Source: Escherichia coli
GTDB taxonomy: Bacteria; Pseudomonadota; Gammaproteobacteria; Enterobacterales; Enterobacteriaceae
Strand: one strand, 5' to 3'
Assembly (NCBI RefSeq): GCF_003334315.1
Contig: NZ_QOWR01000067.1
DNA: 23,487 nucleotides
Part shown: positions 4,600-5,239 of the stretch, one piece after another
Position numbering within the stretch: position 1 is the stretch's first letter
Layout: every line of letters begins with the position of its first letter
Made by a program: the position numbers and the translations under genes
Notes under the pieces: generated by a model
Databases searched by the model: none
What the model saw: only the letters and a program-made list of their open reading frames with translations
What the model was told of the DNA's origin: nothing

Positions 4600-4901
4600 G
4601 CGTTACGGTGCACCACGCCTGACTGAAGAACTGCGTGCTCAGGGTTATCACTTCAACGTAAAACCGTGGCAGGAGGTCCGGACTGAAAAAACTGGTCAGG
4701 ACATCATCGGCAGGGAACGCACTGCTAGTCTGTAAACTGAACCGACTGGGGCGCAGTATGTGGCATCTTGTCGTGCTGTTGGAGGAGCTGTGCGAACGTG
4801 GTATTAACTTTCGTGCTCTGGCCCAATCTATATTTGCCCAACAATGGGGGGACGAATGCTGTAAAAGTAAAACAATCTGCGATCTCAAAGTTATTGTGTG
4901 A
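4600..4901 (+). pseudogene. Serine recombinase / DNA invertase (Hin-Gin-Pin family) remnant, truncated and frameshifted
   Basis: The frame over 4662..4901 encodes [53 protein letters not shown]..., matching the central region of Gin/Hin invertases (RPGLKRALK...GDTLVVWKLDRLGRS.KHL...L.ERGINF) as I recall them. The N-terminal catalytic-serine region and the C-terminal HTH are not intact. By position it may correspond to pinH of K-12. Confidence 0.7.
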
Positions 4902-5239
4902 TTTTTATGTGAGCAGAAGATATTCATCAGAAACGATTATGTAAATCATTTTATTTTGCCAACTGCCTGATTGTCGAAAGAAAAGAATACGCCCGTGTTT
5001 CCTGAATAGATTGACTTTTTTATCCAACCACACTTCAGCGCACTGCGTTTAAAAAATGCCTCATTCTTATGCGGAATATCACCATTTCATCATGATGTCT
5101 TTGATGAGCGGTGAACACAATACACTTGCGCTGTCTCTTCAGGATGAATCCCCTGGTCTGGTGCCTGTGGGCTGATGTTGCAGCAAAGCTAAGGTCGCTT
5201 AAACGCTACTCAGTATTCACTTTTCAGAGGATGAAATTT

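Follow-up and report, generated by a model that had tools for sequence, protein, structure and literature searches.

A probable relic of a phage-type DNA-invertase gene, the pseudogene pinH, between ypjCB and the adhesin gene ypjA of Escherichia coli

The invertase-like reading frame upstream of the adhesin gene ypjA, in the 23,487 nucleotide stretch of Escherichia coli DNA analysed here (hereafter the window), is with high confidence pinH, a non-functional relic of a phage-type DNA-invertase gene of the Din family (Pin/Gin/Cin/Hin) that persists as inert prophage debris. The feature is already catalogued as the pseudogene pinH and hence is not new; no study of pinH was found in a literature search. 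What is added to the existing annotation is its fine structure, which runs from a scrap of IS3 through pin codons 42-100 to an autotransporter module, together with the observation that both ends of the invertase gene and the neighbouring crossover site are gone. The sequence adjoining ypjA is the leader of the adhesin module, common to the ycgH locus, and a candidate phase-variation switch for the YpjA/EhaD adhesin is thereby removed; otherwise the finding matters little. The features referred to below are as follows.

2129-2204, tRNA gene, predicted by ARAGORN
4449-4476, no strand assigned, terminator-like G+C-rich hairpin flanked by T/A runs (terminator scan, sequence)
4584-4672, + strand, about 88 bp from the interior of an IS3-family transposase gene (orfB), with a 1-base frameshift (IS3 identity, NCBIfam)
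4662-4901, + strand, equivalent of pinH (b2648), extending to the stop codon of the open frame (K-12 annotation, blastn mapping)
4665-4832, "recombinase family protein, partial" in the PGAP annotation
4674-4850, + strand, Pin/Gin-type serine recombinase gene fragment, codons ~42-100 of about 184-190, the core of pinH (Gin, Pfam Resolvase and PinE matches, DNA alignment)
4853-5210, + strand, upstream (leader) module belonging to the autotransporter gene and paralogous to the ymgJ/ycgH upstream region (database matches, locus annotation, pairwise alignment)
5020-5031, + strand, proposed gix/hix half-site TTATCCAACCAC, a chance-level match with no partner
5056-5175, + strand, 39-codon ORF, hypothetical protein WP_001120794.1, inside the shared leader module (ORF list, PGAP)
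5240-9814, + strand, ypjA (ehaD), AIDA-like adhesin autotransporter gene (annotation of near-identical genomes, ORF)
9975-10337, minus strand, ssrA (tmRNA), predicted by ARAGORN

The annotation of near-identical complete genomes places the window on the E. coli chromosome, with the gene order tRNA ileY, ypjCB, a partial "recombinase family protein", the 39-codon hypothetical ORF, ypjA, ssrA, smpB and, further on, recN, ffh and rplS. In K-12 MG1655 the pseudogene pinH (b2648, 240 bp) is annotated between ypjA (b2647) and ypjB, and by blastn coordinate mapping it corresponds to window 4662-4901. Over 4540-5260 the window is 99.0% identical to K-12 (blastn), with the pin fragment itself 100% identical to K-12 pinH, so that neighbours and sequence are alike and nothing essential differs. 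There are, however, differences around it: K-12 carries the cryptic prophage CP4-57 between ypjA and ssrA, whereas the window genome is without CP4-57 and its ypjA abuts ssrA, and the ypjC and ypjB of K-12 are annotated in the window's genome as one interrupted gene, ypjCB. The fragment sits in an AT-rich island (G+C 32-44%) between tRNA ileY and ssrA. A hairpin at 4449-4476, downstream of ypjCB, marks the end of the upstream gene ahead of the IS3/pin debris. The annotated ypjC and ypjB (window 2955-3437 and 3537-4328) are halves of a single gene, ypjCB (DUF5507/DUF5508), split here by an internal stop and intact in strain MS20675 with 484 residues; the ypjCB region is very AT-rich, at about 32-35% G+C.

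The invertase-like peptide is encoded in frame 3 of the + strand. Its best match among solved structures is to Gin (4m6f/3uj3, E 4.7e-12, Gin residues 39-95), with the gamma-delta and Tn3 resolvases at E 3e-3 or worse, and the fragment is therefore invertase-like and not resolvase-like. The Pfam Resolvase model is matched over positions 48-103 of 145 (E 3e-9), and in tblastn searches K-12 PinE has 39/57 identities (68%; PinE residues 38-94, window 4662-4832, E 1e-19) and the Pin of a P2-like prophage 36/53. DNA similarity to pinE and to the P2-like prophage pin stops in the alignment at CCAATGGG, about 4848-4850. The surviving piece comprises 59 codons, 177 bp, or about 30% of an invertase gene. 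The preliminary description had reported a clear but broken serine-invertase frame ending 339 bp before the autotransporter start, and both the similarity and the distance hold (stop codon 4899-4901, ypjA ATG 5240). What does not hold is that a full-length frame lies broken here, as only PinE codons ~38/42 to ~100 of 184 are left; similarly, the interval 4600-5239 that it had delimited does contain the pin piece, but its 5' part (to 4672) is IS3 scrap and from 4853 onwards it consists of a ymgJ/ycgH-type leader.

The catalytic Ser10 (YVRVST motif) is absent, the match beginning at PinE residue 38-42 with the IS3 fragment in its place, and helix E and the helix-turn-helix DNA-binding domain are likewise absent, similarity finishing at PinE residue ~94-100 in any frame. 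A tblastn search of all frames of the 23.5-kb window revealed no other Pin-like piece, N- or C-terminal (next best E 0.47). The 5' ~125 bp of the invertase gene are deleted; in the Gin, Hin and Cin systems the Fis-bound recombinational enhancer is located in the 5' portion of the gene for the recombinase. The 57 surviving residues are 68% identical to PinE of e14, a member of the Din family like Gin (Mu), Cin (P1) and Hin (Salmonella). PinE, however, is full-length at 184 residues, and its paired crossover sites lie in tail-fibre genes at a distance of about 1.8 kb from each other, while pinH is without the N-terminus, the C-terminus, the sites and the tail-fibre genes. Thus the fragment has the catalytic-domain core similarity of the Din-family serine DNA invertases, but it has no catalytic serine, no DNA-binding domain, no paired sites and no orientation polymorphism, all of which define a working member. 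Judged from what is left of the gene, the fragment would encode no active enzyme and would do nothing today.

In place of the missing 5' third of the invertase gene there is a scrap of IS3, joined at pin codon ~42. The stretch 4584-4672 shows 87.5-89.8% identity to the transposase genes of IS3 and its family and matches the NCBIfam model transpos_IS3 over positions 145-172 of 369 (E 3e-4). A complete IS3 element has terminal inverted repeats, orfA and orfB with a programmed frameshift, and a 3-bp target duplication. At 4584-4672 there are no terminal inverted repeats and no complete ORF, and no more than about 88 bases from the interior of the transposase gene are left. The allele of strain MS20675, which is 92.9% identical over 4540-5260, shares the IS3/pin junction, and because so divergent an allele has the same junction it represents one old event. 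This is distinct from the complete IS3 found in strain C5 within pinH at 4720-4722, with a 3-bp duplication (L005 6810-7972), which is a separate, recent insertion. Other insertion sequences have been observed in the neighbourhood: an IS3 terminus (GATCCTACCC) ends contig L008 at about window 5178, just upstream of ypjA, and IS1 is present in about window 4300-5300 in three of the genomes listed (Combat13F7, EA13 and PEC414), so that there have been repeated independent insertion sequence hits in a short stretch, besides the ancient IS3-like scrap.

On the other side of the fragment, the end of Pin similarity and the start of a paralogous module lie within about 5 bp of each other. About 2,285 database records match this module at 80-90% identity, and the rows of this band that were sampled are 87-88% identical over window 4855-5210 and come from the ymgJ/autotransporter-fragment locus, where a truncated second autotransporter pseudogene (ycgH) lies beside ymgI/ymgJ and minE. 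Because of this 87-88% identity to the ymgJ/ycgH upstream region, 4853-5210 is the adhesin module's own leader and not derived from an invertase; being common to the ycgH locus, it was not part of the invertase unit. A counterpart of the 39-codon ORF is annotated at the ycgH locus too. A scan of 4200-5400 against Rfam gave no match at E <= 1, and no sigma-70-like promoter was found on the + strand of 4300-5300, the only consensus matches being two on the minus strand, a number as in shuffled sequences. With regard to the alignment itself, the ~355 bp upstream of ypjA pair with 3001-3355 of the ymgI-ymgJ-minE locus (L012), and on reading the aligned sequences the 61-codon ymgJ frame closes after 11 codons in the window's copy.

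Crossover sites were sought with two prophages as positive controls, e14 in K-12 and a P2-like one in strain GB089, in which the pin genes are intact. In both controls TTCTCCCAAACCAACGTTTA[T/A]GAAAA precedes the start of pin by about 55-80 bp, and a simple mismatch scan recovers an inverted partner site 1.8-1.9 kb further upstream in tail-fibre genes; the e14 sites found here agree with the published P-segment inversion sites (PMC12529663). A matrix was built from the sites of the control prophages plus gix and hixL, and with it real sites score 29-34 bits. The top full-site score in the whole window is 15.3 bits, at 21792, where the best scores of shuffled sequences average 10.4 +/- 2.9, and near the relic (4300-5300) the matrix scan found no full crossover site, the best score being 2 bits. 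The 26-bp dyad consensus has no match in the window at up to 3 mismatches, and the published e14 16-mer has one 3-mismatch match, inside ypjA and at chance level.

The preliminary description had also proposed a gix/hix half-site at 5020-5031, and this does not stand out from chance. The sequence, TTATCCAACCAC, departs from the gix half-site at 3 positions; the window contains 34 matches of this quality where chance would give 23.8 +/- 4.5, and with a matrix score of 2.75 bits TTATCCAACCAC ranks 298 among half-sites; in pairwise alignment the ycgH-upstream copy has TTATCCAACTAC at this position. That no convincing inverted partner could be found for it agrees with what was obtained here, the consensus, matrix and inverted-repeat searches having yielded nothing beyond chance. 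In the search of 2000-10500 the best inverted repeat bracketing the relic is 4187-4202 / 5308-5323, identical at 15/16 bases; 2 distinct pairs (3 overlapping registers) were found against 0.6 +/- 1.0 in shuffles, which is regarded as chance level. The 4187/5308 repeat is not conserved in the divergent allele of MS20675, and as it is within shuffle expectation and decays in that allele it was rejected as a pair of recombination sites.

The arrangement of the locus is uniform among complete genomes. Among the 5,426 complete E. coli genomes there are 3,042 with 80% or more of the interval 4660-4850 that contains the fragment, and 3,002 with 80% or more of 4300-5300 in a single collinear place; the exceptions to collinearity that were sampled are insertions of IS1 and IS3. 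No inverted arrangement was seen among the complete E. coli assemblies, each of which represents one consensus orientation, and rare inversions in a subpopulation may escape them as they give the consensus. With neither sites nor enzyme there is, however, no mechanism for inversion. Outside E. coli, a scan of species-representative genomes for the junction of pin with the ypjA module gave two matches only. These are a 539-bp contig of 0.74x coverage in a Terrisporobacter mayombei assembly (L015) and a contig of a Planococcaceae MAG (L016), both probably contaminating E. coli DNA and so of no bearing on the age of the relic outside E. coli.

Comparison of the window with the MS20675 allele over the 59 codons reveals 21 differing positions, of which 15 are nonsynonymous and 5 synonymous, plus a stop codon, and gives a pN/pS of 1.09. 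Predicted proteins from other genomes have differing start points and reading frames. On these comparisons the pinH fragment is in neutral decay.

The preliminary description had left two readings side by side, debris from an old prophage or the relic of an invertible switch, and had looked to paired sites and to orientation to separate them. There is no pair, and there is one collinear arrangement in about 3002 of the about 3042 complete genomes that bear the fragment, none having been seen with the other orientation. The half-site put forward for a switch is a chance match within a leader shared with ycgH. Prophage debris is what the rest of the evidence supports: an internal fragment with no N- or C-terminus and no site, evolving at a pN/pS near one and annotated as a pseudogene.

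It would seem most improbable that the locus is nonetheless the remains of a Hin-like promoter switch, in which the invertase gene and a promoter would have sat on an invertible segment with its downstream site between pinH and ypjA, ypjA would once have been, or would still be, phase-variable, and other Pin enzymes would act in trans. In the hin-fljB layout the recombinase and a promoter are carried on an invertible segment upstream of fljB, and the order of recombinase, intergenic region and surface-protein gene on the same strand does resemble this here; there is also the weak half-site likeness at 5020-5031. The likeness to the Hin/H-segment switch of Salmonella is nevertheless superficial, a matter of gene order only, as pinH-ypjA has no hix-like sites, the sequence adjacent to ypjA is that of the autotransporter module and no variation in orientation was observed. 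The search for a 26-bp site found none, the best scores (2 bits in 4300-5300, 15 in the window) falling far from the 29-34 of real sites; from 4853 onwards the intergenic region is common to the ycgH locus and lies outside the invertase unit; and the only inverted repeat that might have been called upon is the chance-level pair at 4187/5308. The reading is therefore largely refuted. Its trans-acting element does have a published basis, since PinE, PinQ and PinR are able to invert a common segment in trans (PMC12529663), but in the absence of sites control by the cell's other invertases is ruled out as well: as far as can be read from the sequence, the pinH region would offer the cell's other Pin enzymes no target and would not control ypjA.

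A retained function as a small expressed protein (72-79 residues in some annotations), for instance as a dominant-negative partner of intact Pin recombinases, is equally hard to credit. Proteins of 48-133 residues are called here in some genome annotations, and there is an open frame of 47 codons from the ATG at 4758. Against this, the pN/pS of 1.09 and the in-frame stop of the MS20675 allele are joined by frameshift and start-point differences among alleles and by the lack of a + strand sigma-70-like promoter in 4300-5300, and both NCBI and the K-12 curators mark the gene as a pseudogene. The piece is also missing Ser10 and helix E, the latter being needed for dimer formation in serine recombinases.

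A different challenge to the description of pinH as inert debris comes from metagenomes. Protein searches revealed a 116-residue form in which an intact N-terminus (MLIGYVRVST...) is fused to the pinH 3' end. There are eleven distinct 116-residue hybrids, all from metagenome or Logan assemblies, and the only isolate member of the hybrid cluster is a 72-residue fragment. Five hybrid contigs were examined (L008, L013, L014, L017 and L018); these have either a Mu-like or P2-like tail-fibre segment and a crossover site upstream, or ypjA downstream, and none extends far both ways. Were the hybrids real, pinH would be a live substrate for recombination, exchange with prophage pin genes creating loci that run from a tail-fibre segment and a crossover site through a pin N-terminus and the pinH 3' end to ypjA. 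It would then serve as a landing pad at which prophage pin genes could exchange by homology; the chromosome would be rearranged, a tail-fibre inversion module of phage origin coming to lie immediately upstream of ypjA in some lineages of wild E. coli, and the recombination history of the locus would be more active than "inert" implies.

This is considered unlikely, although less so than either a promoter switch or a small protein. A 22-kb Mu-like prophage contig does end in a hybrid, three contigs of 3-4.6 kb continue from a hybrid into ypjA, and different N-terminal donors are combined with different pinH alleles. However, the hybrids are confined to metagenome and Logan assemblies, and none of the 5,426 complete E. 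coli genomes contains as much as 80% of contig L008 at a single locus; coverage, where the contig name states it (two contigs), is 2.8x and 4.2x, and on one side each of the contigs examined continues beyond the junction for no more than about 115-540 bp. Furthermore, L008 is nearly identical first to a modern P2-like pin and then to pinH, the change taking place within ~35 bases that resemble intact pin genes. Such a pattern is as expected of assembly chimeras, and it is likely that the hybrid contigs are such chimeras or at most rare recombinants. L008 was also considered as an ancestral, less-degraded form of the gene and was rejected as such, its 5' part resembling a modern P2-like pin and its 3' part pinH; pinH is only about 80% identical to the P2-like pin.

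If the fragment is, as preferred here, the inert relic of a prophage gene, its history may be pictured as follows. A prophage or phage fragment with a tail-fibre inversion system would once have occupied this AT-rich island, and the insertion of an IS3-like element, with two or more deletions or junction events, would have shrunk it to 177 bp. The IS3-like element and deletions would have taken away the 5' end together with the crossover site, and the 3' half would have been lost at the junction with the ypjA module. In e14 and the P2-like prophage the intact pin gene lies at the edge of the invertible tail-fibre segment, with the crossover site just upstream of the start codon, and if the locus was once laid out in this way, an invertible segment would be looked for on the 5' (ypjCB) side and not between pinH and ypjA. 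A prophage origin is suggested by family resemblance, no other phage gene surviving in the island in this window.

A number of minor observations concern the surroundings of the relic. A sigma-S SELEX peak is listed between ypjA and ileY in older K-12 coordinates (PMC5493296); as those coordinates place it upstream of ypjC, at about window 2718, it lies outside pinH and was dropped as a pinH feature. The tRNA gene at 2129-2204 is named "Met" by ARAGORN (anticodon CAT) and tRNA-Ile (ileY, CAU) in genome annotations. Such a clash of Met and Ile names is usual for isoleucine tRNA with the lysidine modification. At the other end of the island ssrA follows directly after ypjA (window 9815-10337), and in strain Esc28 there is a lambdoid prophage at ssrA that has its own partial pin fragment beside rnlAB. 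Finally, within ypjA, window 8803-8856 consists of tandem 12-base units (AAATCCAAAGCC and similar) that give several spurious half-site matches, and these units encode a proline-rich PNPKPDPKPDP linker ahead of the beta-barrel domain.
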